The translations under genes were made by a program, and so were the position numbers. The notes under the pieces were generated by a model. That model ran no database searches, was not told where the DNA came from, and worked only from the letters and a program-made list of their open reading frames with translations. A stretch of 64,000 nt of DNA, from NCBI GenBank assembly GCA_963788655.1, contig CAWBHS010000065.1, forward strand, positions 1 to 64,000, given 5' to 3'. This document shows, one piece after another, positions 12,079-63,767 of this stretch; within the stretch, counting starts at the first letter, position 1, and every line of letters begins with the position of its first letter. This stretch comes from an uncultured Verrucomicrobiae bacterium. Its GTDB lineage: Bacteria > Verrucomicrobiota > Verrucomicrobiia > Limisphaerales > JAFGQR01.

Positions 12079-12130
12079 TTCTGGATTTCGGGTTTCCTTC
12101 GGATTTCGGTCCTTGGGAACTCGGATCTAT
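12079..12130. repeat. Degenerate heptamer (TTCGGAT-like) tandem repeat
   Basis: ttctggatttcgggtttccttcggatttcggtccttgggaactcggatc in the fbaB-cruF intergenic region. Confidence 0.55.
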
Positions 12131-18740: not shown

Positions 18741-20620
18741 GTTTGATACCACCAAAGAGGACCTCAAAGACATACTGCGCAAAGTGGAGGAAGGAAAACT
18801 CCAGCTTCCCGATTTTCAGCGCGACTACGTATGGGGTGACGAAGACGTTCGAAGTCTGATCGCATCGATTGCCAAAGGATTCCCGGTTGGGGCGTTGTTG
18901 ACGTTGGAGACGGGTGGCGAGGTGGAGTTCAAGCCTCGACTGTTGCGTCGGGGTACCGGAACCTAAATGTCTGAATCCAGGCGAATTGCTGCTGGATGGT
19001 CAGCAGCGAATGACTTCGCTGTATCAGGCGACGTTCGCGAAAACGCCTGTTCGAACGCGAACGCCGAAGGGCATGGAGATCGAGCGCTTCTACTACCTCG
19101 ACATCAAGCTTGCGGTGTCGCGTGGGACACTCGACGAGGCGATCGTCGGGGTGCCCGCGGACAGGATCGTTCGAACCAATTCGTCGAAAGCCGGTTCTCG
19201 ACCTTTCCACAAAGGAAGCCGAATTCGAGCACGACTGTTCCCGCTCAACCAAGTCTTCGACAGCCGCAACTGGTATTCATGACTGGCGCGGCTATTGGAA
19301 GACGCGAAAGGCCGGACGTTCGACATTGAGACGAAGTTTTTCAGGGGCATCGTCGATACCATCCAGCGCTACAAAATGCCAATCATCCGTCTCGACCGGA
19401 ACAACAGTCGCGAGGCCATCTGTCTGGTATTCGAGAAAGTGAATGTTGGTGGGAAGAAACTGGATGCGTTCGAGCTGGTCACCGCGATCTATGCCGCCGT
19501 CGATTCGACCTGCGAGAGGACTGGCACGGACCTCAGCCGGCAAAGCGCTCAAGGACGCCACGCGCGAATGATCGCATGCGCCAAATCGACGTGACGTGTT
19601 GACGCAGATCGCGAGCACGGATTTCCTTCAGGCGTGCACATTACTCCACACCCGGGAAACGCGCTTCGAAAAAGCGGATCAGGGGTTAAAGGATAAGGAA
19701 CTGCCGCAGGTGTAGTGTAAGCGTGCAGGCAATGCTCGGGTTGCCGCTACAGGCGTATCGCGCCACGCAGACGCCCTTGAGTCGGGCTTCATAGAAGCCG
19801 CGGGATTTCTGAACGAGCTGAAGATCATTTGGCACAAAGACGTACCGTATCCACCGCAAATCGTAGCACTTGCCGTATTCCATTCTGTGGTCGGAGAACA
19901 GCACAGACAGCGGCGGCCAAGGAAAGGCTGGCCCAGTGGTTTTGGTCGGTGGTACTGGGAGAGCTGTACGGATCTAGCACGGAATCAAGACTGGGGCGCG
20001 ATGTACCTGAGCTAGTCGAGTGGATCATGGACGCGGGCCGCGACCTAGTTCGCTCGACGAAGCGATATTCCAGCAGGACCGATCTCTACTGCGCTGCGGA
20101 CACGTCAATCTGCCGCCTACAAGAGGAGTGCACGCGCTTCTGATGCGCCAAGGCTGCCGGGATTTCATTACGGGCACGCGCTACCGATCTGATGACGTTT
20201 TACAACGACAAGATCGACATCCACCATATCTTTCCGCAGAAGTAGTGCAAGAAGCAGGCTTAAACCCGACGGTCTTCAATGCGGTGGTCAACAAGACCCC
20301 ACTCTCGAAGAAGTCGAACATCCTGATCAGCGGTGACGCTCCGTCTGTCTATCTGGCGCGGATCGAAACCGAAGCAGGGCTTGTCTCCCGAAAGGCTGGA
20401 CTGACATCCTGCGTACGCACTTGATCGAGCCAGAACACCTGCGAGCGGACAATTTCGAAGGCTTCTTCGATGCGCGCATCAAAGCGCTCGCGACTCTGAT
20501 CGCCGGCGCGCTTGGCAAGGCAGTGGTTGAAAGCACGGATCGAATGAAGAGGAACACGAAGTTGAGGAAGATATCGAGTTGCTACCAGCCGAAGCGGACG
20601 AAGAGTTGGCGGCAGTGTAA
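18739..20620 (+). pseudogene. DUF262 (GmrSD-like) protein with C-terminal HNH-like part; frameshifts and in-frame stops
   Basis: QLPDFQRDYVW, LLDGQQRMTSL, VFEKVNVGGKKL, DIHHIFP, NKTPLS fragments. Confidence 0.8.
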
Positions 20621-28400: not shown

Positions 28401-31400
28401 GCCTCGTGGATGCCGGTCATTCACTGTTGGTGATCGAGCACAATCTCGACGTGATCAAATGCGCCGATTGGATCATCGACCTGGGACCCGAAGCCGGCGA
28501 ACGCGGCGGCCAGGTCGTTGCCAGCGGCACCCCGGAGGACATTGCCGCATGCGATGCCAGCCATACCGGCCAATTCCTGCGGACCGTCTTGCCAACACCG
28601 AAATCCCCTCGTGGCAGCCGACGTGAGGAGGCTCAAATTTCATCGAAAGACGATTCTGTTCTCGCCAAGAATGAGCCTCCTTACGTCGGCTGCTACGATT
28701 CTTCAGACAAGACCGTAAGTCCTACGGCTGGAGCTTTACGGGAAGCATCTACGTCCAGCGTCTCGCCGCGCGCTTTACCGACGGTCCATCGCAATTCGAG
28801 CATCACCATCCTCGGCGCGCGCGAGCACAATCTGAAGGATCTCGCTCTCGACATTCCGCGCGACCAATTCGTGGTCGTGACCGGCGTCAGCGGTTCGGGC
28901 AAAAGCACGCTGGCGTTTGACCTGTTGTTCGCCGAAGGCCAACGCCGGTTTCTCGATTCGATGAACACCTACGCCCGACAGTTCGTCGAGCAAATGGCGC
29001 GGCCCGACGTGGACCTCATTGCCGGACTGCCGCCGACGGTCAGCATCGAGCAGCGCACCACCCGCGGCGGCGGCAAGAGCACCGTGGCCACGGTGACCGA
29101 GGTGTACCATTTTCTGCGGCTGCTCTTTGCGCGGCTGGGGACGCAGCATTGTCCCGACTGCCAATTGCCGGTGGAGGCCCAGACCCGCGACCAACTCGCG
29201 CGCGGCCTGATGGCCGAACTCAAACAACGCGGCGCGCTGCGCCTGCTGGCGCCCGTCGTCCGCAACCGCAAAGGCTTTCACTCCGACGTAGCCGACTGGG
29301 CCGCCAAACATGGCTACGCCGAAATCCGCGCGGATGGAAAATTCTACGACACCGGGAAACCCTTTCGCCTCGACCGCTTCCGCGAACACGACGTGGAGAT
29401 TGCCGTGGGCCGCCTGGATTCCCGAGGCACGCGCTCCGGACGGCAACTCATCGAGGAAGCTCTCAAACTTGGCCAGGGCGCGCTCTTCGCCCTGGACCAG
29501 CGCGACAAGCTATCCATTCACTCGACCGAACGCGCCTGCCCTCGATGCAGCCGTTCGTTCGCGCCGCTGGATCCAAAGATGTTCAGCTACAATTCCGCGC
29601 AAGGTTGGTGTCCTCGTTGCCGCGGCTTCGGTGAAATCTTTTATATGCCGGAGGACGTGGATCGTGGAGAACGCGCCGATGCCATCGAGGAAACGTGGTT
29701 CCGATGGATGGAGGACCAACGAGAGGTGTGCCCGGAGTGTCACGGCGCGCGCTTGAATCCCATTGCGCGAGCAGTCCGCTTGTCGCCGGCCGATTCCCGA
29801 CTGAGCCTCTCCAAGTCGCGGGCCGGCGCAACGATTGACGACATTTCGCAACTGGCCGTCGAGCCGGCCTACGACGTTTTCCGCTGCCTCAAATTCAAAG
29901 GGCGCGCCGCGGCGATTGCGCGGGACATCCTGCCGGAAATTGCGGAACGGCTCAAATTCCTCACCGACGTCGGACTCGGTTACCTCCAATTAGGCCGCGG
30001 CGTGACCACCCTCAGCGGCGGTGAAGCCCAACGCATCCGGCTGGCGGCGCAACTGGGCTCGAATCTTAGCGGCGTGCTCTATGTGCTGGACGAGCCAACG
30101 ATTGGTCTGCACGCGCGGGACAACGAACAACTGCTCGGCGCGCTGGCGCAGCTCCGTTCGCGCGGCAATTCGCTGGTGGTCGTCGAGCACGACGAAGACA
30201 CCATGCGCCACGCGGACTACATCATCGATCTCGGTCCCGGGGCGGGCATCCATGGCGGGCAACTGGTGGCTGGCGGCACGTTGGACGAACTGCTGCGCCA
30301 CGACGAGTCGGTCACCGGCCAATGCTTGCGGGCGCAGGAAACCAAGCAATATCCAACGCGCGGCCAACGGCGGCCGGTCAACGGCGGAAGATCATCTCGC
30401 GGGTCACGGCCTGCCAACAGCCGTGGCTCATCCGTAAATGGCACTACTCGCATTCGGAGCAGGCAACCAGCCACTCAGTGGTTGGTGTTCCGCAAAGCGG
30501 CGGTCCACAATTTGAAGAACCTCACGGTCCAGTTTCCTTTGAACCGGCTGGTACTAATCACGGGCGTCAGCGGCTCCGGCAAAAGCACCCTGGTTCGCGA
30601 ATGCCTGTTGCCCGCGCTGAATGAAGCGCTCAAACCGCGCCGGTCGCGTGCCGCGGCGACGAAGGGGACGCTCACTGGCTACGAAGCGCTTAAGGCGGTC
30701 TATGAGGTTGATCAATCGCCCATTGGCCGGACGCCGCGTTCGGTGCCGGCCACCTACGTGGGTTTCTTCGACGAGATTCGCCGCCTGTTTGCCCAGACGC
30801 CCGAGGCCCGTTTGCGCGGCTATGGGCCGGGACGATTTTCCTTCAACAGCAAACAAGGCCGTTGCCCCGAATGCGAAGGCGCGGGCATCATCAAACTGGA
30901 AATGAACTTCCTGCCGCCCGCGTTTGTGCGCTGCGAACGCTGCGGGGGCTCGCGCTTCAATCGCGAAACGCTCGACATCGAATACGCCGGCAAGACCATC
31001 GCGCAGGTGCTCGAAATGAGCGTCGAGGAAGCGCTCCGGTTCTTCTCCGGCATTCCCAAAATCCGGCGGGCGCTCGAAGCCCTGCACGACACCGGCCTCG
31101 ACTATTTGAAGCTGGGCCAAACCAGCCCAACGCTGAGCGGCGGCGAAGCACAACGGGTGAAGCTGGTAACGCATTTGCTGACCGGCTTAAAGCCGCAGCT
31201 CGAATTGACTGATCCCAACGACCCGAAGCAGAAACGCAATCTCTTCATCCTGGAAGAACCGACCATCGGCTTGCACATCGCGGACGTGCGCCGCTTGGTC
31301 GAAGTGCTGCAACGGTTGGTGGACGCCGGACATTCCGTGATCGTCATCGAGCACAATCTCGACCTCATTGCCGAGGCGGACTGGGTGATTGACCTGGGCC

Positions 31401-31522
31401 CGGAAGGCGGCGATGACGGTGGCCGAATTGTGATGGCCGGCACACCTGAAGAGATCGCCCGTCACCGGCCCTCGCACACGGGGCGGTTCTTGCGGAAGAT
31501 GTTGAAACGGCGAAAACGTTGA
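25453..31522 (+). CDS. uvrA: Double-length (tandem-fused) excinuclease ABC subunit A; one frameshift near 25917
   Basis: GGAGG RBS before ATG 25453. Four Walker A motifs ([24 protein letters not shown] x2), four LSGGE signatures, multiple CxxC zinc modules. Confidence 0.93.
28611..28696. repeat. GTAG-type palindromic REP/MITE-like element, in frame in the uvrA inter-module linker
   Basis: Left arm GTGGCAGCCGACGTGAGGAGGCTC (23/24 identical to the 22336 copy); right arm GAGCCTCCTTACGTCGGCTGCTAC. Confidence 0.85.
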
Positions 31523-35117: not shown

Positions 35118-36463
35118 TTAGGGTTGGAAGGGATTGAGCATCCGAATGCGCCGGTCGTTGCCCAGTTCAACCGCTTCCCAATCGAGGAAATAGGAACACT
35201 TTTTGTCCAGGATTTCGTGCATCAACCGGCTGCGCAAATGGGCCCGCGAATTGGGGGGCGGCCGCGTCATCGCCTGGCGCAAGCCCGCGGCCGGCCACAA
35301 ATCGCCGGGTTCGGCCATGGCGATTCCCAAACTCCGCTTCGGGTGAATCTGGTGAAACTCGAGATCCTGTGACTCGAGCCAGGGATCGCCCCATTCCAAC
35401 CCTTCGCGGGTGCAGAATTCACGGAACAGATATTCCTTGCTCACCCAATCCAACTTACCCACCAACGTCAGGGGATCCGCGGCGAGACTTTCAATGACCT
35501 GGCCCCAGAGCGTGAGCAACGCGTCGGTTTCCGTGTCCCGCCCCTGGAAATTTCTTTTGGCCTTTTGATATACACCTCGAGGAGTTCGAGCGCATCGGCC
35601 GGTTTGCCATCGGCCAGCGTCACACTCCAGGGCGGCCGCAAATTGCGCGAGAGCGTCCGCAGCGAGGTGACGGCGTCCAACAGGGCCAGTTCCGGCAAAT
35701 CGTCGGCGTCCAGGAGGTCCAACACGAGACGGGTGGTGCCGACTTTCAGGAACAAAGCCCGCGGTAGCACATTGCTGTCGCCGTGAATGAGGTGCAACCG
35801 ACGGAACAACCGCGGATCGGCCAAGGGTTCGTCGCGCGTGTTAATGATGGCGCGATTGTGTTGCACCCACTCGAAGAAATCATTTTGGATGTAGTCGGCC
35901 CGCTGGCTGATTTGAAAGAGAGCCGGATTCTCGCGCATCACAATTTCACCGCGGAACCGGGTTGGCCGGATGGCTCCCACCCTGCCCGAGCCGGAATAGA
36001 GGACCCGCAACGTCAGAAAGGCCAGCAAGGACAACACGTTCTTCTCGTGCAGCGGCGCCTTGCGGTCGAGGGAATAATTCTCATGACAACCAAACGTCGC
36101 CCCGGTGTGATGATCGACATTGTTGCGGATGATGCTGACGCGAGTTTCCAGACCCAAGTCGCGCACGGCTTCGAGCAGAAGCATGTCGCCGGCCCGATCG
36201 TAATGCACAACTTCGGTGGCGGTGGTACATTCCGGGGTGCAATACTCCAGGTGCCCCATGTCGATGTAAACCCGGCCCCCGTTGAAAAGAAATCCTCCGT
36301 TGCCGGCCGGTTCATCCCAATCCCGGTCATGCCGGTCAATCAAACCGTAGCGGTGTTTTTCGAACAACCAGTCCCGAATGCGCGGCAGGAGATCCGACGC
36401 CTGGACGGGCGGCTCGACCAAACATCCGTATTCAGTTTCAATGCCTGTAATGCGACGTGACAT
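35118..36463 (-). CDS. pafA: Pup/UBact-protein ligase (PafA-like); frameshift near 35570
   Basis: GIETEYG, FLFNGGRVYID, EYCTPEC, FGCHENY, ISQRAD, IINTRDEP, RRLHLIHGDSN. C-terminus (LDWVSK, DLEFH) lies in ORF 35118..35519. Confidence 0.9.
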
Positions 36464-36598
36464 GTTTCAAAGACTTACGGGCCCTGCCCTTTTGGTGACA
36501 AGCCCGGACTCCCACAATCGTTCCCTTGCGCCGGCCACGGGTGAGTTCCTGCCGCGCACGCCCCGTTTCGTTCTTTGGGTGAAACAAGTCGGGGTTGG

Positions 36599-37312
36599 TT
36601 ACCCGAGCTTCAATTCCTGATATTGCACCGAGCCGGCGCGTTGCCGATCCAACCACCCGGCTTCCACCGTCTTACCCGAGATCGACAGCAGCGGCTCGGA
36701 CGGCAGAGCCAATTCAGCGAAGGTTTTGCCTTCCGTCACTGCTTGCCAGGCGGTCAGGCAGGCGGAGGCGACTTGGTCCAGGGAATCCTTGGCCCGCAGA
36801 TGTTCCTGGAGCCAGCGGGTGGCATCTTCTTCCACTTTGGGATCGCTGCACGCCACCAGCACGCCGGAGGTTTCATAACGGTGGTTGCCGTCAAAGTGCA
36901 GACGCACCAGCACGTCCTGCTCCGGCGATTCCCCCAGTTCGGCAAAAACGGCTTCGACGATTAGCGGCGGCGAAAAGATCTGTTCGAAACTATTCTTGAA
37001 CGAAGGACTCAGCGCAAAACTGATCAGGCGGCGCAACGTGACGTCTTTGGGCGACCGGGTGAAGCCCTCGAGATGAGCCGCTTCAATGGCCGACTGACGG
37101 ACTTTCTCGATGTCCACCGGATGGCCAAGCGCCGCAAAACCGTGCCGGTTGTAAATCTCGAACACTTTGGAATGCCCGTGCCCAACGCCCAGCAGCAAAA
37201 TGCCGGTCGGTCGGGAGACCGCAAACACCGGTGTGCCGCCTTTGAGTTGCTCGCGGATGTACTCCCGGCGATTGCCGATGGCCTCCAACCAACGATACGG
37301 TTCTTCGGTCAT
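36599..37312 (-). CDS. prcA: 20S proteasome alpha subunit
   Basis: RREYIREQL..G, KVFEIYNR.GFAALG, YxRxDV-like FTRSPKDVT; ATGA overlap with prcB. Confidence 0.85.
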   Translation of the reverse strand: MTEEPYRWLEAIGNRREYIREQLKGGTPVFAVSRPTGILLLGVGHGHSKVFEIYNRHGFAALGHPVDIEKVRQSAIEAAHLEGFTRSPKDVTLRRLISFALSPSFKNSFEQIFSPPLIVEAVFAELGESPEQDVLVRLHFDGNHRYETSGVLVACSDPKVEEDATRWLQEHLRAKDSLDQVASACLTAWQAVTEGKTFAELALPSEPLLSISGKTVEAGWLDRQRAGSVQYQELKLG

Positions 37313-38067
37313 GACTGGGATTCTTTCCAAAACCGGGCCTGCTCCTCCGGGCTGATCGAGCGGACTCCCTCGCGCGACAACACTTTGATGGTGGCAAACA
37401 ACTTCCGATCCGGGTGAACGCCGCCGGTGGCCGTGTCAAATTCCGCCGCGGTCATCAGCAGGCGATTGGCCAAACTGCAAGCCGGTCCTAAGGCCATCTC
37501 TTCCGGTCGCGGTTTCCCCCATTTCTCCAGGTAGTGAAGGACGCTCTTGATGCTGGCGGAACCGGAACCGCTGCCGGCGTATTGAGCCGCTTCAAACTGG
37601 GCGCCCAACGGATCGTAAAATTGAATTACCGGTTTGGCATCAGGCTCGTTGACCTCGACCCCGGCAAAAATCGGAGAAACCGCCCCAAAGCCTTGAATGG
37701 TCGCCGGAATGTTATCGCGGAGCAATTTGGACAACGCCCGAATTTTGGCCGGCACACTCATGGATTGCAACTGGCTGCGGCGATAAAACTCGAAGGTGGT
37801 TTGCAGCGTGCGCGCCATTTCGAACGCGGTGGCCGGCACGCCCGCAATTGCCATGAGCGAGTGCGAATCCAACTCCAGGATCTTGTCCGTCTTGTCGGAG
37901 AAGATCAGGTTACCGGCCGTGGCCCGATGGTCGCCGGCGATCACCACTCCATCGGCACAATGGAAGGCAAACACCGTCGTCGCCTCCAACGGCAACGGTC
38001 CACCGCTCGGCACCCCGAGCGCCGGCAGTGGGTTCTTCGGCAGCAAGGCCAGAAAATCGCCGTTCAT
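37309..38067 (-). CDS. prcB: 20S proteasome beta subunit
   Basis: Short propeptide then TTVFAF, AGDHRATAGN, DKI, YDPLG, GSGS, DTATGG (Ntn-hydrolase motifs). Confidence 0.9.
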   Translation of the reverse strand: MNGDFLALLPKNPLPALGVPSGGPLPLEATTVFAFHCADGVVIAGDHRATAGNLIFSDKTDKILELDSHSLMAIAGVPATAFEMARTLQTTFEFYRRSQLQSMSVPAKIRALSKLLRDNIPATIQGFGAVSPIFAGVEVNEPDAKPVIQFYDPLGAQFEAAQYAGSGSGSASIKSVLHYLEKWGKPRPEEMALGPACSLANRLLMTAAEFDTATGGVHPDRKLFATIKVLSREGVRSISPEEQARFWKESQS

Positions 38068-38236
38068 TGCCCCGTGCGCTGGCGATAGCGTCGGGCCTGG
38101 TCCGGATCCACCTTGCGCATGCGCTTCAGCAACTCCTCGGTGTTGGGTTTATCGACTTGCGGGGCGCGTGGCCCGTCACCCCTCCTCCCCCGGGTGCCGG
38201 AGCGGTCGGACGTGGTTTTTGAATTCTTTCTGGCAT
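38064..38236 (-). CDS. ubact: Prokaryotic ubiquitin-like protein UBact (about 57 aa; 1-nt indel in a G-run near 38180)
   Basis: Hand translation, adding one G: MPERIQKPRPTAPAPGGGGGDGPRAPQVDKPNTEELLKRMRKVDPDQARRYRQRTGQ*. The stop overlaps the prcB ATG, and the gene sits between dop and prcB. Confidence 0.88.
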
Positions 38237-38255
38237 ACAGTTAACTACTACATCA

Positions 38256-39776
38256 CTAAAGCACCTTTGCAAAGTTCAGGTGGATTAAATCTTCCACCGC
38301 CTCGGCAGCGCTGATGACCTTCAAACTCTGTCGGACCTGGATCGGATCGAACAAATTGCGCAGATCCAGTTCAACGCGTTGCCGACTGCCGCGCAGCAAC
38401 AGGTAGTCCCATTGCGTGGCTTCCACCGCGCTACCGAATTTCTCAATGCAACGGCCGCGTACCGCCGCGCGGGTGGTATGCGGCGGGCACATGCTGTGAT
38501 GAGAAATCTCCGGCAGCGAATACGGGAGCCGAAAGGCCTTCTGGCCCATCAAGCCGTAGAATAGACCCAGGTCGCGATCCAGTTGGTGATAGGTCAGGTC
38601 GAGGCTGCGCAACCACGGATCCTCCGGGGACAGATGCTCCAATTCACGGAATTGCTCGACAAGTTTGTATTTGGCCGCCCAGTCCAGGCGATCGGCAGTG
38701 GCCAATGGATCACGTTCCAAGTCGCCCAAGATTTCCTCCCAGGCCTGGATCAGTTGGCGCCAGTCGGCATCAAGGTCGGGACAAAATTCCTTCACCAGTT
38801 CCACGTAGCGTTGCTGCACGGCGAGCGCCGTAGTTGGTCGGCCTTCAGCTTCCTGGCAGTGCCACTTCCACGTCGTGTCACGGGAGATGCGTTTCAGGGT
38901 CTGAAGCGGATCGCCGAGATCGGGTACGCGTTCGACGGGTGCGCCGTTCAGCAGGGCCTGCAATACCAGGGCGGTAGTGCCGATCTTCAAATAGGTCGAA
39001 TAAAACGACAAATTGGCATCGCCAATGATCACGTGGAAGCGGCGGTACACCTCGTTGTTGGCGTGCGGTTCGTCGCGGGTATTGATGATCGGCCGGCGCT
39101 GCATTGTGTCCACACTTTGCAACTCGGAGAAGAAGTCGCTGCGCTGCGAAATTTGGAAACCCGGACCGAGGAACTTGTCTTCGTCTTCCCAGCCGAACTT
39201 GCCGGCGCCGCAATAAATCTGGCGCGTAATCAGGAAGGCGAGCACGCCTTGTGTCAGCCGGTCCCAGGTCAAGGTGCGGGGCATCAGATAATTCTCGTGG
39301 CAGCCGTAGCTATGCCCCCGAAAGTCGGTGTTGTTCTTGTAGAGCACCACCGGGTTGTCCGAGCCTTGACTCACCACGCGGGCGCATTCCAGCAGCAGGC
39401 AGTCGCCCTGGTAGTCCTGCTGCAGAATTTCGAGCAACGTGCTGCACTCGGGCGTGCAATACTCGGGGTGGGCATGATCGTTGTAAAAGCGGCCGCCATT
39501 GCGCAGCACCATGTCGCTCTTGATTTCGTGGAAGGTGAGCGAGCGTTGGGCATCCTGCGCAAAGTAATGATTTTCGTCGCGGTCCTGGAGCAGTTCTTTG
39601 ACCCGGAATCCACGAGCGTCGCAGTGAGGATCTTCGCAATTGTAATCCCAGCGCATCCGTACCCCCGGCGCTTTGGTGGCCCGAACCAACGCGATGGACT
39701 CGGCCACGACATCCACTTCCGCGGGCTGCTGGCGGGAGATGCCGATCTCTGTTTCAATGCCGAATTGAATATCCAT
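38256..39776 (-). CDS. dop: Deamidase/depupylase Dop-like (PafA2 family)
   Basis: FGIETEIG, Dop-loop-like WDYNCEDPHCDARGF, NGGRFYNDHAHPEY, KNNTD..GHSYGCHENY, RPIINTRDEPH, RRFHVIIGDAN. Confidence 0.9.
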   Translation of the reverse strand: MDIQFGIETEIGISRQQPAEVDVVAESIALVRATKAPGVRMRWDYNCEDPHCDARGFRVKELLQDRDENHYFAQDAQRSLTFHEIKSDMVLRNGGRFYNDHAHPEYCTPECSTLLEILQQDYQGDCLLLECARVVSQGSDNPVVLYKNNTDFRGHSYGCHENYLMPRTLTWDRLTQGVLAFLITRQIYCGAGKFGWEDEDKFLGPGFQISQRSDFFSELQSVDTMQRRPIINTRDEPHANNEVYRRFHVIIGDANLSFYSTYLKIGTTALVLQALLNGAPVERVPDLGDPLQTLKRISRDTTWKWHCQEAEGRPTTALAVQQRYVELVKEFCPDLDADWRQLIQAWEEILGDLERDPLATADRLDWAAKYKLVEQFRELEHLSPEDPWLRSLDLTYHQLDRDLGLFYGLMGQKAFRLPYSLPEISHHSMCPPHTTRAAVRGRCIEKFGSAVEATQWDYLLLRGSRQRVELDLRNLFDPIQVRQSLKVISAAEAVEDLIHLNFAKVL

Positions 39777-39881
39777 AAAATCTGGTGCTGGCGCGAAAGG
39801 TTTCCTTGGGCCGCCAGTATAGGGGATTTGACGGAGCCGGAAGTGCCGCATTCATTCCCATCAAACCAGGCAATCCATGCG

Positions 39882-41579
39882 CTAAATTGTTCCGGACGAG
39901 TTGGTGGAGTCCGCGGTGCGATACGGCGCGAGTCGCACGACATTGCCCGGATCAAAATCCGTCAGTTTAAGCCAGTCCTCCGTGATGTCGCTAGGCGGGA
40001 ACAGATCGTTTTCGCGATATTCGCAGTTTAGCGCTTGCTGCAAATCCTGGAGGGCTAACGGCGACTCCGTCTTGACCGCAATAGACCGCTTGATGGCGTA
40101 TTCCTTGGCCCGTTCGACAATTGCCGCAATGATGGCTCCGCTGGCCAGATCGCCACGGAATAAATAGTCGTGTTTGCCACTGCGGTAGGTGATGTCCAAA
40201 AACCGGTTGTCCTCCGATTTGGCATAGTGCTGGTCGGCGATCTTCTTCACCAATTCCGGCTGCGGTGTTTCCAACGGCAGATCGGACGTCAGGTAAATCC
40301 GGTATATTTCCTCCGCCGCTTCCTTGTTTGGACGTTTCACGCGAATCTTCCGGTCAATGCGCCCCGGACGCAAGATGGCGGGATCGATCAAGTCGGCGCG
40401 ATTGGACGCCAAGATCACCACGACGTTTTGCAGCGGTTCCAAGCCGTCCATCTCCGTGCAGAACATCGGCACGAGCGTGGACAGAATACTGGTTCCGCCG
40501 CGGAGCGCGTGCCGGGTGCCCAAGATGGATTCGGCTTCATCAATGAACAGAAAGGCCAGGTGGCCTTCGGCGGCTTTCTCGCGGCACTGGGCAAACAGGT
40601 CGCGCACCTGCCGCTCCGATTCGCCCAGCCACATGTTGAGGATTTCCGGACCCTTGACGGTGAGGAAGAATTCCGGGCGATCTTCGCCGGTTTCGGCCTT
40701 GATTTGCTGCCGCAAATTGTGAGCGGTGGCTTTGCCCAACAAGGTTTTGCCGCAACCCGGCGGCCCGTAGAGCAGGAAGCCTTTGGGCACGGGATGATTG
40801 AACCGCTTGAACAAGTGCGCGTGGAGGAACGGCAGTTCGATCGAGTCGCGAATCGCCTCGACCGCTTCCTGTTGTCCTCCAATCTTGTTCCAAGGCAATT
40901 GCTCAACCCGAGCCAGGGTGCGATCGGCGCGCTTGGCGGTGCCAATGATTTCCACCGCCACGCGTTGATTGGCGTCCAAACGCAGGTCAAGTCCGGCTTT
41001 CAATTTCTCTTTCACCAGCAGCGACGAACGCGCGACGATCAGATCGGAAATGCCGGTTTCATTGCCGACCCGCAAACGGCCGTCGGTGAGCAATTCCATA
41101 ACTCGCACCACGGGACCGTTTTGATCGAACTCGAAGGCGTCAATCACGGCAAAGGCTTCATTGAGCAACACCCGTACACCGGTATCGAGGCTGTCCTTGG
41201 GCAACGAAGGATCGACGCTGCAGACGTAATCCGATCCATTCGCGCAAACCAGCGCGCGATCCTTGCCCAACTTTTGGAGCAACGTGCCCAATCGCAACGC
41301 GGGCGACCGGAGTTTTTCCACCGCTTCGCTGAGCTTCTCCACCGCGTGACGGGCCTGGTCCTGGACCTCTTCCATTTCCTGAATCCGCCGCCGTAACAGA
41401 GACATGTCCGCGGACATCGCCCCCTGCAGAGCCATCTTATGGGTAATGAGATCCACCAACTGGAGGGCCGACATCTGTTCGACCTGCTCTTCCGGGACCG
41501 CTTCCTCAATCGCGGGGAACTCAAAATCCGTTGCCCGATGGGTCGCGGACTGTGCTCGGCTCTTGCTCGATTTGTTCAC
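39882..41579 (-). CDS. arc: Proteasomal AAA+ ATPase ARC/Mpa (start uncertain; ORF open to 41663)
   Basis: N-terminal coiled coil and OB-like region, GPPGCGKT, KGPEILNMWLGESE, FIDEAES, SNRADLIDPAILRPGRID, SGAIIAAIVERAK. Confidence 0.92.
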   Translation of the reverse strand: MNKSSKSRAQSATHRATDFEFPAIEEAVPEEQVEQMSALQLVDLITHKMALQGAMSADMSLLRRRIQEMEEVQDQARHAVEKLSEAVEKLRSPALRLGTLLQKLGKDRALVCANGSDYVCSVDPSLPKDSLDTGVRVLLNEAFAVIDAFEFDQNGPVVRVMELLTDGRLRVGNETGISDLIVARSSLLVKEKLKAGLDLRLDANQRVAVEIIGTAKRADRTLARVEQLPWNKIGGQQEAVEAIRDSIELPFLHAHLFKRFNHPVPKGFLLYGPPGCGKTLLGKATAHNLRQQIKAETGEDRPEFFLTVKGPEILNMWLGESERQVRDLFAQCREKAAEGHLAFLFIDEAESILGTRHALRGGTSILSTLVPMFCTEMDGLEPLQNVVVILASNRADLIDPAILRPGRIDRKIRVKRPNKEAAEEIYRIYLTSDLPLETPQPELVKKIADQHYAKSEDNRFLDITYRSGKHDYLFRGDLASGAIIAAIVERAKEYAIKRSIAVKTESPLALQDLQQALNCEYRENDLFPPSDITEDWLKLTDFDPGNVVRLAPYRTADSTNSSGTI

Positions 41580-41883
41580 AGTGGAACTATACGACAGGTT
41601 GGTATTCGCGCAAACGAGGGTGGGAAGTTTTCGCGGTAGTTTTGCAGTCAACGGTTGCTGCACCCACCACTGTTCTCGACGAGCACCCGGGAGTGCTCCC
41701 CGTCAGGGGTGGGTACGGGCTGGCTGTGCAGCACGACTATCGCGCAGAATGGACTTCAGCCATCCCATTCGCTGTTGGTTCAGCGTTTCAACTTTTCGCC
41801 CCTTCTCTCCTTCACCCTCCGTTACGGAGCAAATCCGAATTCAATGGCCTCCCCGGATCCGGTTGGTTAGGTAAAAATGATAG

Positions 41884-41929
41884 TTAGAATTATTCCAATT
41901 ATTGACAAGCCTCCGGCACTTGTTAGATT
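41884..41929 (+). promoter_or_regulatory. Fur/PerR-like box plus sigma70 promoter of the fur-suf operon
   Basis: 7-1-7 inverted repeat TTAGAAT-T-ATTCCAA (41884-41898), TTGACA (41902-41907), extended -10 TGtTAGATT (41921-41929). Confidence 0.65.
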
Positions 41930-41937
41930 GCCGCAGG

Positions 41938-42378
41938 ATGAAATCGGTGGGCAATACGATTGATGGCCGGCGGTTGAACGAACGGCTGGCCACGAGCGGG
42001 CTGCGCTTCACGGCGCAGCGCCGCCACGTTTATGAAGTGCTCCTGCAAAAACAGGATCACCCGTCCGCCGAAGAAATCTTTATCCGGGCCAAGAAGGGTA
42101 TGCCGGAAATTTCCATGGCCACGGTGTACAATTGCGTGGATACGCTGGTAAAGTGCGGCTTGGTGCGGTTGGTGCATTTGGATCGCGGCCCGACCCGCTA
42201 TTGTTCCAATATGCGGGAGCACGGACATTTTTACTGCGATGTCTGTGGCAGCGTTTATGATTTCGACCTGGCCCGAAATGCGCCGCCCGCCGAATTGCAA
42301 CTGCCGCGCGGCTACAAGGCCAGCCATTACGAGATTGCCGTCCATGGCGTCTGCCCGGATTGTGCGGACGCAAAGTGA
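41938..42378 (+). CDS. Fur-family transcriptional regulator (PerR-like)
   Basis: GLRFTAQR, HPSAEEI, SMATVYN, HGHFYCDVCG, GVCPDC. Confidence 0.92.
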   Translation: MKSVGNTIDGRRLNERLATSGLRFTAQRRHVYEVLLQKQDHPSAEEIFIRAKKGMPEISMATVYNCVDTLVKCGLVRLVHLDRGPTRYCSNMREHGHFYCDVCGSVYDFDLARNAPPAELQLPRGYKASHYEIAVHGVCPDCADAK

Positions 42379-42447
42379 ACAGCCGGTTGTGCGGATCAAA
42401 ACAGTCGAACGATTTAATTTTAACGAGAGTAACCAGTTAACGGAAAC

Positions 42448-43896
42448 ATGAGTTCAGCCACGGAAACCATCGAAGGCTTTGTCAAACGCGAGTACAAGTA
42501 CGGGTTCTACACCGACATGGAAGCCGACTCTGCGCCTCCCGGTTTGAATGAGGACATCATTCGGTTCATCTCGCTCAAGAAAGAAGAACCGGAGTGGCTT
42601 TTGGAATGGCGGTTGAAGGCGTACCGGCACTGGTTGACGATGAAGGTGCCCGCCTGGCCGAAGGTCCACTACCCGCCGGTTAACTTTCAGGACATCGTGT
42701 ATTACTCGGCGCCCCGCGGACAGGTCAACGCCCCCAAGAGCTTGGACGAAGTGGATCCCAAACTGCTCGAGACCTACGAAAAACTGGGCATTCCCCTGAA
42801 GGAACGTGAACGTCTGGCCGGGGTCGCGGTGGACGCGGTGTTTGACAGTGTGTCGGTGGGCACCACGTTCAAGGAGCGGCTGGCGGAGAAAGGCATCATC
42901 TTCTGCTCGATCAGCGAAGCGGTACGGGAACACCCGGAACTGGTGCGCAAGTACCTCGGCACGGTGGTTCCGTACAAGGACAATTTCTACGCGGCATTGA
43001 ATTCCGCGGTGTTTACCGACGGATCCTTTTGTTACATCCCCAAAGGCGTGCGGTGCCCGATGGAACTGTCCACCTATTTCCGCATCAACGCCGCCAAGTC
43101 CGGCCAGTTCGAACGCACCCTCATTGTGGCCGAGGAAGGCGCGTATGTAAGTTACTTGGAAGGCTGCACGGCCCCAATGCGCGATGAGAACCAGCTTCAC
43201 GCCGCGGTCGTCGAACTGCTCGCGTTGGAGCGGGCGGAAATCAAATATTCGACCGTGCAAAACTGGTATCCGGGCGATGAACAAGGACGCGGCGGCATTT
43301 ACAACTTCGTGACCAAGCGCGGCCTGTGTAAAGGTCGCAATTCGAAGATCTCCTGGACCCAGGTCGAAACCGGCTCAGCGATCACGTGGAAATATCCGAG
43401 CTGCATCCTCCAAGGCGAGAATGCCGTGGGCGAATTCTATTCCGTGGCGCTGACCAACAATTACCAACAGGCGGACACGGGCACCAAGATGGTTCACATC
43501 GGCAAGAACACCCGGAGCACGATTGTGTCCAAGGGCATTTCCGCCGGACACGGCCAGAACAGCTACCGCGGCCTGGTCAAAGTGCAGAAGAGCGCCGCCC
43601 ACGCGCGTAATTTCTCGCAGTGCGACTCGCTGTTGATTGGCGACCAGTGCGGCGCCCACACGTTTCCTTACATCGAAGTGAAAAACACCTCGGGCCGGGT
43701 CGAGCACGAGGCGACCACTTCGAAGATTGGCGAAGACCAAATTTTCTATTGCAACCAACGGGGCATTTCCACGCAGGACGCGGTGAACATGATCGTCAAC
43801 GGTTTTTGCAAAGAAGTGTTCCGTGAGCTGCCGATGGAGTTCGCCGTGGAAGCCCAAAAACTGCTGGGCGTGAGCCTGGAGGGTAGCGTAGGTTAG
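42448..43896 (+). CDS. sufB: Fe-S cluster assembly protein SufB
   Basis: [44 protein letters not shown]. Confidence 0.97.
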
Positions 43897-43956
43897 CTGG
43901 CCGGACAGGAACACGAACCGACCGGTGCCATGGTGGTGTCGGAGGCGGGCAAAACT

Positions 43957-44451
43957 ATGGCAGAAGGCTTTTTCGACACAGCGCAGATTTGCAAGAACGG
44001 TCATCTGGTGAACGACAGCATGAAACGGTTTCCCGAAGCCAATTCACTATTTTGCTCCAAATGCGGCGAACCCACCATCACCGAGTGCGAAGCGTGCCAC
44101 ACGCCCATCCGCGGTTACTATCAGGTGCCGGGCGTCATCGGCTATTCCGAACGCAAAAAGGTGGCGCCGAACTTTTGCCACCACTGCGGCAAGACGTATC
44201 CCTGGACCGACCGCTGGCTGCAAACCAGCCGGGAAATGGTGAACGAGCTGGACGAATTGGCGCCGCCGGATCGGGAGCAGTTTCAACGCTGTCTGCCCGA
44301 CTTGGTGCGGGAAGGCCCGGCCACGGAACTGGCGGCAGTGCGCGTCCGGAAGATTATGAAGAAGCTCAACAAAGAGACCTATGAACTGACGCGAATGGTC
44401 ATTGACGAGCAGTTGAGCGAACCGGCGCGCAAAACCTTGTTTGGATTGTAA
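43957..44451 (+). CDS. DUF2321-like Cys-rich protein
   Basis: AQICKNGH, FCSKCG, ECEAC..PIRG, FCHHCGKTYPW, then a helical C-terminus. Confidence 0.7.
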   Translation: MAEGFFDTAQICKNGHLVNDSMKRFPEANSLFCSKCGEPTITECEACHTPIRGYYQVPGVIGYSERKKVAPNFCHHCGKTYPWTDRWLQTSREMVNELDELAPPDREQFQRCLPDLVREGPATELAAVRVRKIMKKLNKETYELTRMVIDEQLSEPARKTLFGL

Positions 44452-44527
44452 AACGCGCGAGGGGCGCACCGCCGATGGCGGGAACAATTTACTAATGAAG
44501 TAAGCGACGAGAACGAACAAAGAAGAC

Positions 44528-45298
44528 ATGACTCAACCAATCCTTGAAATCAAAAACCTGAGTGCCGGGGTCGAGAACAAACAGATTCTCAAAGGCATCA
44601 ACCTGACCGTCAATCCCGGCGAAGTCCACGCCGTCATGGGCCCGAATGGCAGCGGCAAGAGCACCCTCGCCGCGGTGCTCGCCGGTCGCGCCGGCTACGA
44701 GGTCAACGGCGGTGACGTGCTTTATCTGGGGCAGAACCTGCTCGAATTGGCTCCGGAAGAACGCGCTCGCGAAGGGCTCTTTCTCGCGTTCCAATACCCG
44801 GTGGAAATTCCCGGAGTCAACAGCACCTACTTTTTGAAAGCAGCCTACAACGAGATCCGCAAACACAAAAGCCAGCCCGAGCTCGACGCCATGGAGTTTC
44901 TCGAACTGGTGAAGGAGAGGATGAAGCTGTTGCACCTGCCGGATGACTTGCTCAAGCGTCCGGTGAACGAAGGGTTCTCCGGCGGCGAGAAAAAACGGAA
45001 TGAGATCTTTCAAATGGCGGTGCTGGAACCGCGCCTGGCCGTGCTCGATGAAACGGATTCCGGCCTGGACATTGACGCGCTTAAAGTCGTGGCCAACGGC
45101 GTCAACAAATTGAAAAGCGCCGACAACGCCCAGCTTGTCATCACCCATTACCAACGGCTGCTGAATTACATTGTGCCGGACTTCGTGCATGTCTTGTACG
45201 ACGGCCGGATCGTCAAATCCGGCGGCAAAGAGCTGGCGTTCGAACTCGAGGAAAAAGGCTACGACTGGATCATCAACCCGGAGCCTGTCCCAGCCTGA
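44528..45298 (+). CDS. sufC: Fe-S cluster assembly ATPase SufC
   Basis: GPNGSGKST, FQYPVEIPGV, GFSGGEKKRNE, LDETDSGLDIDA. Confidence 0.97.
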   Translation: MTQPILEIKNLSAGVENKQILKGINLTVNPGEVHAVMGPNGSGKSTLAAVLAGRAGYEVNGGDVLYLGQNLLELAPEERAREGLFLAFQYPVEIPGVNSTYFLKAAYNEIRKHKSQPELDAMEFLELVKERMKLLHLPDDLLKRPVNEGFSGGEKKRNEIFQMAVLEPRLAVLDETDSGLDIDALKVVANGVNKLKSADNAQLVITHYQRLLNYIVPDFVHVLYDGRIVKSGGKELAFELEEKGYDWIINPEPVPA

Positions 45299-45323
45299 TC
45301 CGACAACCCGTTTAAGGAACCAC

Positions 45324-46709
45324 ATGGTGACTGCTCTTCCCGCCAATTCGAATCAAGTCCTGAAAGAAACCGGCCCCTACTGGGACAAGTTCGCGCGGCT
45401 GCAAAAGGTCCTCCACGATCCGGACTGGGTGGCGGCGGCGCGCAAAGCGGCGATGTCCCGCTTCACCGAATTGGGCTTCCCCACCTTGCAGGATGAAGAC
45501 TGGCGCTTCACCAATCTGGCGCCGCTGGTCAAGCTGCCCTTTCGTCCACAGTTTGCGCTGCCCACCGAGGGTTTGACCCGCGACATCTTGGAACCGCTGG
45601 CCTTTGCCGGCGGCAACGGACCGCGGTTGGTATTCGTCAACGGCCATTTCGCCCCGGAACTTTCCACAGTAACTTCGCTGCCGGACGGCGTGATCGTGAG
45701 CAGCCTTGCCGCCGCGCTGGCGAAGGAGCCGGAACTGTTGCGGAAGCATCTATTCCGCGTGGCGAAAACCGAGGCCAATGCCTTTGCGGCTTTGAACACC
45801 GCGTTCTTCCAGGACGGCCTGTTCATTTATGTTCCTGCAGGCCAGGTTGTCTCCGAACCGGTGCAAGCGGTTTATGTCTCCACCGCCAAAGAAAATGGCG
45901 GCACCGCGCACCCGCGCAATTTGATCGTGGCCGAAGCCAACAGCCAATTGACCTTCCTCGAGAATTACGTCAGCGCCACGACGGCGGCACATTTTACCAA
46001 CGCCGTGACCGAATTGGTGGCGGGCGACAATGCGCAAATCGAACACGTCAAATACCAAAACGAAGGTCTGCAGGCCTTCCATTTGGCGGCGCTGCAATCC
46101 GACCTGGGCCGCAACTCTCGGGTGGCGATGCATTCGTTTGCCCTCGGCGCCCGGCTTTCCCGGAACAACATCGACACCTATCTCGGCGGCGAAGGGCTGG
46201 AGTGCATGTTGAACGGTCTGTACGTGACTCGTGACGACCAACTGGCCGACCATCACATGGTGGTCGAACACGCCCAGCCTCATTGCGACAGTCACGAGTA
46301 TTTCAATGGCATTCTCGCCGACCGATCCAAAGGGGTCTTCCACGGACGCATCCTGGTGCAGCCCGGTGCGCAAAAGACCGACGCCAAGCAAACCAACAAA
46401 AACTTGCTGCTTTCCGACGACGCCACGGTCGATACCAAACCGCAACTGGAGATTTACGCCGACGACGTGAAATGCACCCACGGCGCTACCATCGGCCAGT
46501 TGAACGAGGAATCCATTTTCTATCTCCGCTCGCGCGGCATCGGACTCGAAACCGCGCGCCGGATGTTGATTCATGCGTTTGCCGGCGAAATCATCGAACG
46601 CATTCGCCATCCGGCGGTGCGCGAGGAACTCGATCAAATTATTTGGGACCGCCTGGAAGAACATCCGTTGGTGGGTGAAAAACATGACGCCGCGTTGGTC
46701 GAAGCCTGA
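45324..46709 (+). CDS. sufD: Fe-S cluster assembly protein SufD
   Basis: EDWRFTN, AQKTDAKQ, KPQLEIYADDVKCTHGAT, FYLRSRGI. Confidence 0.95.
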   Translation: MVTALPANSNQVLKETGPYWDKFARLQKVLHDPDWVAAARKAAMSRFTELGFPTLQDEDWRFTNLAPLVKLPFRPQFALPTEGLTRDILEPLAFAGGNGPRLVFVNGHFAPELSTVTSLPDGVIVSSLAAALAKEPELLRKHLFRVAKTEANAFAALNTAFFQDGLFIYVPAGQVVSEPVQAVYVSTAKENGGTAHPRNLIVAEANSQLTFLENYVSATTAAHFTNAVTELVAGDNAQIEHVKYQNEGLQAFHLAALQSDLGRNSRVAMHSFALGARLSRNNIDTYLGGEGLECMLNGLYVTRDDQLADHHMVVEHAQPHCDSHEYFNGILADRSKGVFHGRILVQPGAQKTDAKQTNKNLLLSDDATVDTKPQLEIYADDVKCTHGATIGQLNEESIFYLRSRGIGLETARRMLIHAFAGEIIERIRHPAVREELDQIIWDRLEEHPLVGEKHDAALVEA

Positions 46710-46756
46710 ACCAATGGAACGTTTGAAATCCCCCCACCACTGGCCGTGCGCAGCCT

Positions 46757-47212
46757 ATGTTTGACGACTTAACCGATTTGTATCAGCAGGTCATTCTCGA
46801 CCACAGCAAGAGCCCGCGTAATTTCCACAAGCTCGAGGGCGCCACCCACACCGCGCGCGGCCAAAACCCGTTGTGCGGCGACAACGTCACGCTCTATCTG
46901 CAAACCGAAGGCGACGTCATCAAGGACATCAGTTTCGAAGGTTCGGGCTGCGCCATTTCGAAGGCTTCGGCCTCGTTGTTGACTGCCGCGCTCAAAGGTA
47001 AAACCAAGGCCGAAGTGAAAGCGCTGTTCGACAAAGTTCACGATATGGTGACCACCGGCAAAGGCAGCGGCGAAGTCGGCAAACTCTCAGTGTTTGCCGG
47101 CGTCCATAAATTTCCCGCGCGCGTCAAATGCGCCATTCTCCCATGGCACGCCGTCATGGCTGCCTTGGAAGGAAAACAGGAGCCGGTGAGCACGGAGAAA
47201 GAGGACACTTGA
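46757..47212 (+). CDS. sufU: SUF-system NifU/SufU protein
   Basis: LYQQVILDH, NPLCGD, GCAISKASAS, RVKCA. Confidence 0.93.
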   Translation: MFDDLTDLYQQVILDHSKSPRNFHKLEGATHTARGQNPLCGDNVTLYLQTEGDVIKDISFEGSGCAISKASASLLTAALKGKTKAEVKALFDKVHDMVTTGKGSGEVGKLSVFAGVHKFPARVKCAILPWHAVMAALEGKQEPVSTEKEDT

Positions 47213-47269
47213 TTGGCGCTCAACTGATGCCGTTTGTGCAAAAAACGTTTTCCCAAGATCTTTCAACCT

Positions 47270-47839
47270 ATGGACACGAATGAATCCGTAACGCTCGTTC
47301 GCGACGTCGAAGCCGCCATGGTGCCCGCGGGCACCCCGGTCACTTTGGAGAAAGGTGTTTCCGCCCGCATTACCCAATCGCTGGGCGGCACTTATACCGT
47401 CGTAGTCAATGGCAACATGTTCCGCATCGACAGCCGGAATGCCGACGCGTTGGGACTCAAGCCGGAAACACCATCCGCCGCGCCCGCCACGGAAGCGGGT
47501 CCGGGTAAATCCACGACGCCGGAAGACTTGGAAAAGCAGGTCTGGGACGAGTTGAAGAACGTTTACGATCCGGAGATCCCAGTCAATATCGTGGACCTCG
47601 GGCTCGTGTACGATTGCACGGTCAGCCCGCTCGGAACGGACAACACGTTCAAAGTCCACGTGCGCATGACCCTGACCGCGCCCGGTTGTGGCATGGGACC
47701 CATGATTGCCCAGGATGCCCAGAACCGCCTGCTCTCCCTCGAACCCGTCGATGAAGCCGAAGTCGAGTTGGTGTGGGATCCGCCATGGAACCAAGACATG
47801 CTGTCCGAAACCGCCAAATTGCAGCTTGGATTGATGTAG
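47270..47839 (+). CDS. sufT: SufT (DUF59) Fe-S assembly protein
   Basis: ITQSLGG, YDPEIPVNIVDLGLVY, MTLTAPGCGMG, VWDPPW. Confidence 0.9.
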   Translation: MDTNESVTLVRDVEAAMVPAGTPVTLEKGVSARITQSLGGTYTVVVNGNMFRIDSRNADALGLKPETPSAAPATEAGPGKSTTPEDLEKQVWDELKNVYDPEIPVNIVDLGLVYDCTVSPLGTDNTFKVHVRMTLTAPGCGMGPMIAQDAQNRLLSLEPVDEAEVELVWDPPWNQDMLSETAKLQLGLM

Positions 47840-47851
47840 GATCGCAATTCC

Positions 47852-49114
47852 ATGACCACGGAAAACGCCACCTCATCTGCCGCCACCCAGTCGGTCGATT
47901 GGCCCTCATTGCGCGCTGACTTTCCCATTCTCGATCAGCAGGTCAACGGCAAGCCCTTGATCTATTTTGACAATGCGGCAACGTCGCAAAAACCGCGGGC
48001 CGTGATCGAGGCCTTGCGCCATTATTACGAGCACGACAACGCCAATGTCCACCGCGGTATTCACAAGCTGAGCAACCGGGCCACCGCCGCCTTTGAAGCC
48101 GCGCGGGAACGCACCGCGAAGTTCATCAATGCCCATAGCGCCGAGGAAATTGTCTTCACGCGCGGCACCACCGAGGGCATCAACTTGGTCGCCCAGGCTT
48201 GGGGTTCCCAGCATCTTCAGCGCGGCGACAAAATTCTGCTCACCGAGATGGAGCACCACAGCAACATCGTGCCCTGGCAACTGCTGGCGAAACGCAGCGG
48301 CGCGCAACTGGTGTATTTACCCGTAACCGGTGATCTGGGTTTGATCGATTTCTCCCGACTCGACGATTGGCTGACCCCGGAGGTCAAACTGGTTTCGCTG
48401 ACCCATATCTCGAACTCACTCGGTACGATCAATCCGGTAGCCGAAGTCTGCGCGAAAGCGCGAAAGCGCGGTATCACCACGCTCGTCGATGCGGCCCAAA
48501 GCGCGGGCCACCGGAAGCTTGATGTTCAGGAGATCGGCTGCGATTTCCTGGCGTTCAGCGGACACAAAATGTGCGGGCCCACCGGTTTCGGCATTCTTTA
48601 TGGCCGCGCCGAGCAATTGGAAGCCATGCCCCCATACCAGGGTGGCGGCGAAATGATTCTGTCCGTGGATTTCCAAGAGACGACCTTCAAGCAAGCGCCG
48701 CACAAGTTTGAAGCGGGCACGCCCGACATCTCCGGCGCCATCGGGCTGCACGCCGCGATGGATTATCTGGACCGGATCGAGCGCGATAACATTGCCCGGC
48801 ACGATCTGGAACTGGGCGCCTACGCGTACGAAAAGCTCGCGCAACTGAAGAACATTCGCCTCTTTGGACCCGCCACCGGCCGGGCTGGCTTGGTAAGCTT
48901 TTTGTTGAAAGACATCCACGCGCATGACGTGGTGACGGTGGCGGACCAATTCGGCGTGGCCCTGCGCGGTGGGCACCATTGCAATCAGCCGTTGATGCAC
49001 AAGCTGGGCGTCGAATCCACGGCCCGCGCCAGTTTCTATTTTTACAACACCACCGCCGAAATTGACCGGTTCGTGGAAGTCATTCGTGAAATCCAGAAAT
49101 TCTTTGGTGCGTAA
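47852..49114 (+). CDS. sufS: Cysteine desulfurase SufS
   Basis: DNAATSQKP, EHHSNIVPW, FSGHKMCGP (PLP Lys), RGGHHCNQP (catalytic Cys). Confidence 0.96.
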   Translation: MTTENATSSAATQSVDWPSLRADFPILDQQVNGKPLIYFDNAATSQKPRAVIEALRHYYEHDNANVHRGIHKLSNRATAAFEAARERTAKFINAHSAEEIVFTRGTTEGINLVAQAWGSQHLQRGDKILLTEMEHHSNIVPWQLLAKRSGAQLVYLPVTGDLGLIDFSRLDDWLTPEVKLVSLTHISNSLGTINPVAEVCAKARKRGITTLVDAAQSAGHRKLDVQEIGCDFLAFSGHKMCGPTGFGILYGRAEQLEAMPPYQGGGEMILSVDFQETTFKQAPHKFEAGTPDISGAIGLHAAMDYLDRIERDNIARHDLELGAYAYEKLAQLKNIRLFGPATGRAGLVSFLLKDIHAHDVVTVADQFGVALRGGHHCNQPLMHKLGVESTARASFYFYNTTAEIDRFVEVIREIQKFFGA

Positions 49115-63754: not shown

Positions 63755-63767
63755 GCGGCGGCAGGCG

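Follow-up and report, generated by a model that had tools for sequence, protein, structure and literature searches.

A UBact-proteasome operon of known Gram-negative type, with two frame breaks in its assembly, in an uncultured Verrucomicrobiota genome

The 64,000-nucleotide stretch analyzed here (the window), from contig CAWBHS010000065.1 of an uncultured verrucomicrobial bacterium, carries on its minus strand, between positions 35118 and 41663, six co-oriented genes for a ubiquitin-like tagging pathway and its protease: arc, a dop-type gene, ubact, prcB, prcA and a pafA-like gene. We consider it very likely that they form a UBact-proteasome operon of the type known from Gram-negative phyla, and that the broken reading frames of ubact and of the pafA-like gene are errors of the assembly. 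As both breaks are best read as single-base deletion errors, the organism itself most likely carries an intact operon. The gene identities were obtained from profile searches (Pfam, TIGR and NCBIfam) with E-values far beyond chance.

39882-41663, minus strand: arc, an arc/mpa-like proteasomal AAA ATPase gene (PF00004, PF17758, PF16450; TIGR03689)
38256-39851, minus strand: dop-type gene of the Pup_ligase family (PF03136, 460.7 bits, E 7e-138)
38064-38236, minus strand: ubact, frame-broken in the assembly (NF033388, 74.6 bits for the C-terminal part)
37309-38067, minus strand: prcB, 20S beta subunit of 252 amino acids (PF00227, 82 bits; TIGR03690, 134 bits)
36599-37312, minus strand: prcA, 20S alpha subunit (TIGR03691, 66.7 bits)
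35118-36463, minus strand: pafA-like gene of the Pup_ligase family, frame-broken in the assembly (PF03136, profile positions 1-312 and 324-440)

Layout and components of the operon

The gene order arc-dop-ubact-prcB-prcA-pafA and the coupling of ubact, prcB and prcA through ATGA overlaps had been claimed in an earlier note on this DNA, and both were borne out, the former by the open reading frames (ORFs) and their family matches, the latter by the stop and start coordinates. The ATG of prcB (38067-38065) lies on the stop codon of ubact (38066-38064), and the ATG at 37312 lies on the stop codon of prcB (37311-37309). This ATG is the probable start of prcA; the ORF listing places the start at a TTG, 37330, and counts the ATG as residue 7. 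Between arc and the initial ATG of dop lie 30 nucleotides, dop and ubact are 19 apart, and 135 separate prcA from the sixth gene.

In the assembly, ubact is read in two frames instead of the single ORF of about 55-60 codons expected of a UBact gene. Its N-terminal part, MPERIQKPRPTAPAPGGGG, runs in one frame from the ATG at 38236 to about 38180, and its C-terminal part, GDGPRAPQVDKPNTEELLKRMRKVDPDQARRYRQRTGQ up to the stop codon, follows in the -1 frame from about 38183 to 38064. With a frame switch allowed, the pieces span residues 1-57 of the UBact protein from a genome of the same genus, termed G001 (locus L021/L031), in which the six genes are uninterrupted and identically ordered, with a UBact of 57 and a PafA-like protein of 448 amino acids. 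The C-terminal 42 residues from the window alone reach 74.6 bits with NF033388, covering profile positions 16-54 of 54, and the G001 orthologue reaches 82.4 bits. As the curated cut-off is 35, the earlier assignment of this gene as UBact is confirmed. The protein ends in RYRQRTGQ directly before the stop codon, an end that recurs in 22 related loci and fits the pattern ...RQRTG[EQ], and its C-terminal glutamine implies a need for deamidation.

The dop-type ORF encodes 531 residues, with the conserved part beginning at Met26 (ATG 39776). It scores 417.7 bits with the Dop model TIGR03688 versus 312.9 bits with the PafA model TIGR03686, the former value lying under the Dop equivalog cut-off of 492.3. 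With Dop (4b0r, 5lrt) and PafA (4b0t, 4bjr) as solved references, the closest relative is the Dop protein of Acidothermus, 4b0r, at 319.7 bits (residues 30-486 aligned to 5-458), compared to 210.1 bits for PafA 4b0t. The alignment with 4b0r continues through the Dop-loop region, so that the Dop-loop insertion is present, and in comparison with the sixth gene the protein has an insertion of 33 residues; a passage of PMC7947786 describes the Dop-loop as an insertion of about 40 residues in Dop. The motif YNDHAHPEY around the catalytic aspartate aligns without gaps to YVDHAHPEY of 4b0r.

Counted from a GTG at 41663, ARC has a length of 593 amino acids, although the true start is uncertain, with the same-genus orthologue aligning from about 41627; the two proteins are 80% identical over 581 residues. 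The AAA domain and both proteasomal-ATPase OB domains were identified (PF00004, 106.5 bits; PF17758, 55.2 bits; PF16450, 44.9 bits), and the translation carries the Walker A motif GPPGCGKT and the Walker B motif FIDEAE. TIGR03689 is matched over profile positions 8-499 of 512 with 427.5 bits, under the cut-off of 504.75, with the two-OB plus AAA architecture present. The C-terminus, ...NSSGTI (window 39882-39900), is devoid of a GQYL motif, and the same holds for all 11 readable C-termini of the clade, window included, whose last residues are small and hydrophobic (SGTI, AAAV, SGIV or QSAI). A penultimate tyrosine was found in none of these 11, two of 12 related loci being unreadable with the frame guess used. 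Note that, according to a passage of PMC8142254, gate opening by Mpa requires the C-terminal GQYL.

In PrcB a propeptide of 29 residues precedes the sequence TTVFAF, and Thr30, Asp46 and Lys62, corresponding to Thr1, Asp17 and Lys33 of the mature subunit, are shared by all seven aligned orthologues; the Ntn-hydrolase triad is thus present. The best-scoring family for PrcB is TIGR03690, at 134 bits versus an equivalog cut-off of 191.9. PrcA, for which the Pfam search returned no match at E<=0.01, scores best with TIGR03691 (66.7 bits over profile positions 13-212 of 229, under the cut-off of 139.05) and is 75% identical to its G001 counterpart.

Frame breaks in ubact and the sixth gene

Both indels that had been suspected in this operon are present, near 38180-38183 in ubact and near 35561/35562 in the pafA-like gene. 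Compared with G001, ubact shows a single 1-base gap, one base missing in the run GGAGGAGG-GGTGAC within the G-rich stretch at about 38180-38183. In the sixth gene, frame A (36463-35468) matches PF03136 positions 1-312 with 263.9 bits and frame B (35519-35118) positions 324-440 with 83.7 bits. The sequence ATCAAAAG-GCC, at about 35561/35562, lacks one base, and from there the reading continues in the -1 frame, again with one internal 1-base gap versus G001. The first half corresponds to residues 1-308 and the second to residues 300-447 of the 448-residue G001 protein, with 87% and 72% identity, respectively.

We consider it very likely that both breaks are assembly errors. The draft genome comprises 115 contigs, with a completeness of 86% and a contamination of 5.6%, and rpoB is found in three frame pieces, rpoC in six pieces with an in-frame TGA, secA in six and gyrA in at least six. 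Over the roughly 11.9 kb of these four essential genes, none of which can be a pseudogene, we counted 16 frame switches or more, compared to two in the 6.5 kb of the operon, and as the latter figure is at or under the assembly's own error rate, the operon breaks are no evidence of decay. The earlier note had named confirmed frameshifts, as the mark of a decaying operon, among the grounds for refutation; each break lacks just one base, and the essential genes of this assembly are interrupted in the same manner, so that the decay reading is not upheld. Note that 'homopolymer error' would be too narrow a term, since the switches in rpoB and rpoC are not limited to long homopolymers, and that 'single-base deletion error' fits. 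The four genes lie at C45:50900-59000, C38:173700-176500 and C58:17600-20200 of this assembly, with in-frame TGA codons in some of the pieces. Further genes of the window are affected as well, a GmrSD-like gene and an ABC ATPase being split over frames, and RtcB, CobW and a DNA methylase surviving as fragments.

The relatives point in the same direction. Forty were sampled, each representing a different family within the same order, and UBact was present in 16, in every case in a single frame. Among 30 other loci scanned, 22 likewise have UBact in one frame, and the remaining eight are without a UBact-type ORF end in the stretch covered. Ratios of non-synonymous to synonymous substitution rates (dN/dS) versus G001 are low in broken and unbroken genes alike, with 0.060 for the N-terminal and 0.087 for the other half of the pafA-like gene, 0.014 for the C-terminal part of ubact, 0.090 for arc, 0.085 for dop, 0.075 for prcB and 0.141 for prcA, values that are rough because dS is saturated at 1.2-2.8.

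Several points weigh against this interpretation. The sole public sequencing run found, a soil metagenome (0.09 of sampled words), has short contigs that miss both break sites, and two exact-pattern scans of metagenome contigs, for the ubact G-run with two or three bases at the break, returned zero matches each. As both breaks thus have no independent read or contig coverage, the case for assembly error is a statistical rather than a direct one. The window is also less broken than the contigs that hold rpoBC, secA and gyrA, and with ORFs of 1877, 938 and 730 amino acids intact, its local error rate must be under the genome-wide figure. Due to the long divergence from G001, a recent inactivation would not be detectable by dN/dS. 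With respect to the identity of the system, all five large proteins score under the actinobacterial equivalog cut-offs, and the sixth gene is a putative ligase by homology, position and architecture.

We have also weighed a different scenario, in which the breaks are real and the lineage is dismantling its tagging arm, with ubact and the ligase-like gene as young pseudogenes and ARC, the Dop-type enzyme and the 20S core retained. Besides the long intact ORFs elsewhere in the window, it can draw on the location of both breaks, which sit in just the two tagging-specific genes, and on a set of related loci: L025 and L027 have no pafA-like gene in the 2-4 kb following prcA, L024 has only fragments of it, and in six further loci arc and dop occur with ubact and prcBA not alongside. 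Nevertheless, each break consists of one base, with the rest of either gene undisrupted, and breaks per kb are far more numerous in the essential genes of the same assembly. The N-terminal part of the pafA-like protein is the best-conserved of the operon in comparison with G001 (89% identity over aligned codons, together with the lowest rate ratio of the large proteins given above), and if the remaining 57 kb of the window are taken to hold roughly five breaks, the Poisson probability for two in 6.5 kb is about 0.1, so that the operon shows no significant excess. We therefore judge a real dismantling to be improbable.

Far less credible still is the idea that the cell bypasses the ubact break, be it through programmed -1 ribosomal frameshifting or transcriptional slippage. 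The break does fall within the G-rich run CCCGGGGGAGGAGGGG, and -1 is the shift needed, but the relatives have no need of such a device, their ubact genes being in a single frame in each of the 16 sampled genomes and of the 22 loci that show a UBact end, and frame breaks are found throughout the essential genes of this same genome. On these two grounds programmed frameshifting in ubact was ruled out. With assembly error as the preferred explanation for both sites, the practical and negative result is that frame breaks in this genome are not to be read as pseudogenes; owing to the high single-base indel error rate of the assembly, any such call needs the reads.

The pafA-like gene and the proposed pathway

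Both Pup_ligase paralogues exceed the PF03136 gathering cut-off of 25 bits. The halves of the sixth gene reach 186.5 and 57.6 bits with the PafA model TIGR03686, for which the equivalog cut-off is 551.3, and the intact G001 orthologue scores slightly higher with the Dop model (271 bits) than with the PafA model (249.4 bits), as it does with the solved structures (Dop 204.9 bits, PafA 193.8 bits). The G001 protein does match the PafA model from end to end, residues 3-447 aligning to positions 1-444 of 457, and the Dop-loop is absent, as evidenced both by the alignment to the solved structures and by comparison with the dop-type gene. At the catalytic aspartate the sequence YIDMGHLEY has the spacing of Dop, ungapped to YVDHAHPEY, with the extra residue of PafA absent, and D68, M69, H71 and E73 are invariant in 35 members of the sixth-gene family. 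The alpha-loop, NDFFEWVQHNRAIINTRDEP, is the family's own and invariant, and a Val-Gln pair takes the position of a Thr-Thr pair. Passages of PMC7947786 state that these two threonines are conserved in both Dop and PafA, that PafA in the strict sense carries a single additional residue next to the catalytic aspartate ('VHA to LVGS' with insertion), and that loss of the Dop-loop together with a change of the alpha-loop suffices to convert Dop into a ligase.

The sixth gene does not qualify as a PafA in the strict sense. The label 'pafA' given in the earlier note is supported by operon position and by architecture, that is the missing Dop-loop and the end-to-end alignment with the PafA model, and fails in the strict tests of PafA score and aspartate segment. 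Structure prediction did not separate the two families: an AlphaFold2 model of the G001 orthologue has a mean predicted local distance difference test score (pLDDT) of 69.3, with a helix, the form that the alpha-loop would take in a strict PafA, at 195-202 but a pLDDT under 50 over 159-206 and in the alpha-loop, and in a Foldseek search with this model PafA 4bjr and Dop 4b0r were tied at template modelling (TM) scores of 0.76 and 0.77. The family to which it belongs is large and uniform, and a search with the sixth-gene product found 4823 database proteins at E<=1e-10. The best 120 of these, the query itself apart, are 69-86% identical and nearly all of about 448 amino acids, and their source names read 'proteasome accessory factor PafA2 family' or 'proteasome accessory factor A'.

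The working of the system can be proposed by homology to the actinobacterial Pup system, to which the present analysis contributes the gene identities, their order and coupling, the catalytic motifs and their conservation in relatives. UBact would be made with a C-terminal glutamine, which the Dop-type enzyme may then deamidate to yield UBact-Glu, and the same enzyme probably also strips the tag from proteins. The product of the sixth gene, lacking the Dop-loop, is predicted to activate the gamma-carboxylate by phosphorylation with ATP and to ligate it to lysines of the substrate, and a hexamer of ARC would bind the tag, unfold the tagged protein and feed it into the 20S core formed by PrcA and PrcB.

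The assignment of the ligase is the point at which this scheme could be mistaken even for an intact operon. The sixth gene might encode a second hydrolase or a regulator, leaving ligation to the Dop-type enzyme or to some other protein, or the labor might be divided in another way than between Dop and PafA. The Dop-leaning scores with profiles and solved structures, the Dop-like spacing at the catalytic aspartate, Val-Gln at the conserved threonine positions and the tie in the fold search are all in line with this possibility. It is nevertheless unlikely in our estimate, for the protein lacks the Dop-loop, aligns with the PafA model over its entire length and is encoded in PafA's place in the operon, while the changes described as sufficient for a transition from Dop to ligase are loss of that loop and an altered alpha-loop. 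Moreover, a tagging system needs a ligase, and no third Pup_ligase gene was found in this genome, which is 86% complete.

Given the features of the sixth gene and an ARC without GQYL, ligation chemistry, the division of labor between the paralogues and the docking of the ATPase to the 20S core could differ from those in mycobacteria. That the tagging arm in this verrucomicrobial clade is not a simple copy of the Pup system, with the sixth gene as a separately specialized Pup_ligase paralogue, is a tentative idea to which we give a rather low probability. If true, the departure from the Pup paradigm would be a property of the family and not of this window. The non-strict PafA and the missing GQYL motif are in any case not particular to the window, being common to the relatives examined.

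Relatives, known systems and surroundings

A probable verrucomicrobial origin had been proposed before, and it stands: of 14 related loci, 13 derive from metagenome-assembled genomes titled Verrucomicrobia, -ota, -ales or -iia, Limisphaerales or Moanabacter, the exception being one titled Limnocylindrales. Window and G001 are collinear over about 7.8 kb, including the neighboring T2SS-F gene, with 74-78% identity in DNA and 75-89% in the operon proteins. As the collinearity of the G001 contig is limited to the operon and the T2SS-F gene, this synteny is no gauge of the local error rate.

Across the phylum, the UBact-proteasome cluster is modular. In the more distant Verrucomicrobiota loci L028 and L032-L036, arc and dop are adjacent (about 4200-7500 of each locus), and ubact, prcB and prcA were not found in the 6 kb downstream of them. 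In L029 and L030, dop-ubact-prcB-prcA and pafA are present, and no arc was found in the 6 kb upstream. The pafA-like pieces of L024, which like L025 and L027 belongs to the nearest clade beyond the genus, are located at 9213-9703 and 11823-12104 and match residues 1-39 and 323-448, and dop is also split over frames in this locus.

The operon is a further copy of an already known system, as the earlier note had said. A passage of Iyer, Burroughs and Aravind 2008 (PMC2588565) describes a sporadic occurrence of Pup conjugation, the C-terminus being G[EQ], among verrucomicrobia, nitrospirae, deltaproteobacteria and planctomycetes, Hecht et al. 2020 (PMC7947786) mention Dop and PafA homologues in Verrucomicrobia drafts, and a 2024 review names Ubact beside Pup in one of its passages (PMC11354881). 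NCBIfam holds an equivalog model for UBact, NF033388. The clusters of Gram-negative phyla have the same six genes in the same order (Mpa/ARC-Dop-UBact-PrcB-PrcA-PafA), and we see no difference of substance, apart from the one base that ubact and the sixth gene each lack in this assembly. The name UBact reportedly goes back to Lehmann et al. 2017, and a bench study of UBact was not found in the literature searched, outside of which most subscription journals lie. With the cluster type known computationally since 2008, a curated model in existence and the system common in soil Verrucomicrobiota, the operon carries little weight as a discovery.

The actinobacterial Pup-proteasome system, exemplified by mpa, dop, pup, prcB, prcA and pafA of M. 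tuberculosis, shares enzyme families, folds and gene order with the operon described here. Common to both are also a tag ending in glutamine beside a Dop-type enzyme that has the Dop-loop, and the intact Thr1, Asp17 and Lys33 of PrcB. In place of Pup, however, the tag is UBact, the sixth gene differs from actinobacterial PafA in the absent residue at the catalytic aspartate and in its own invariant alpha-loop, and ARC, unlike Mpa, is without GQYL; the 29-residue propeptide of PrcB is a further listed difference.

Other genes of the window are also incomplete or unusual. A GmrSD-type N-domain at 18736-19591 (plus strand) is split over frames, with PF03235 positions 1-49 at 18736-18963, positions 141-198 at 19283-19591 and the middle unmatched. 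At 62233-63973 (minus strand), a two-domain ABC ATPase has its first ABC_tran domain complete in 62621-63973 and the second in another frame, 62233-62835, which looks like another single frame break. Of RtcB, the segment 50221-50659 (plus strand) has no more than the final 72 profile positions (355-426 of 426), directly after which come just the initial 54 positions of a CobW-type GTPase, and these pieces may be gene remnants or the product of a mis-join. A DNA methylase is present as fragments only. The 1877-residue ORF mentioned above, unbroken at 25889-31519 (plus strand), combines UvrA interaction and DNA-binding domains with several P-loop/ABC signatures and is roughly twice as long as a normal UvrA.

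The operon itself is flanked downstream by the convergent T2SS-F gene. Upstream and divergent from the arc promoter region, at 41902-49111 of the window (plus strand), a gene for a Fur-family regulator is followed by a suf operon with sufB, a DUF2321 gene, sufC, sufD, NifU-like, FeS_assembly_P and sufS, the DUF2321 gene being placed between sufB and sufC.

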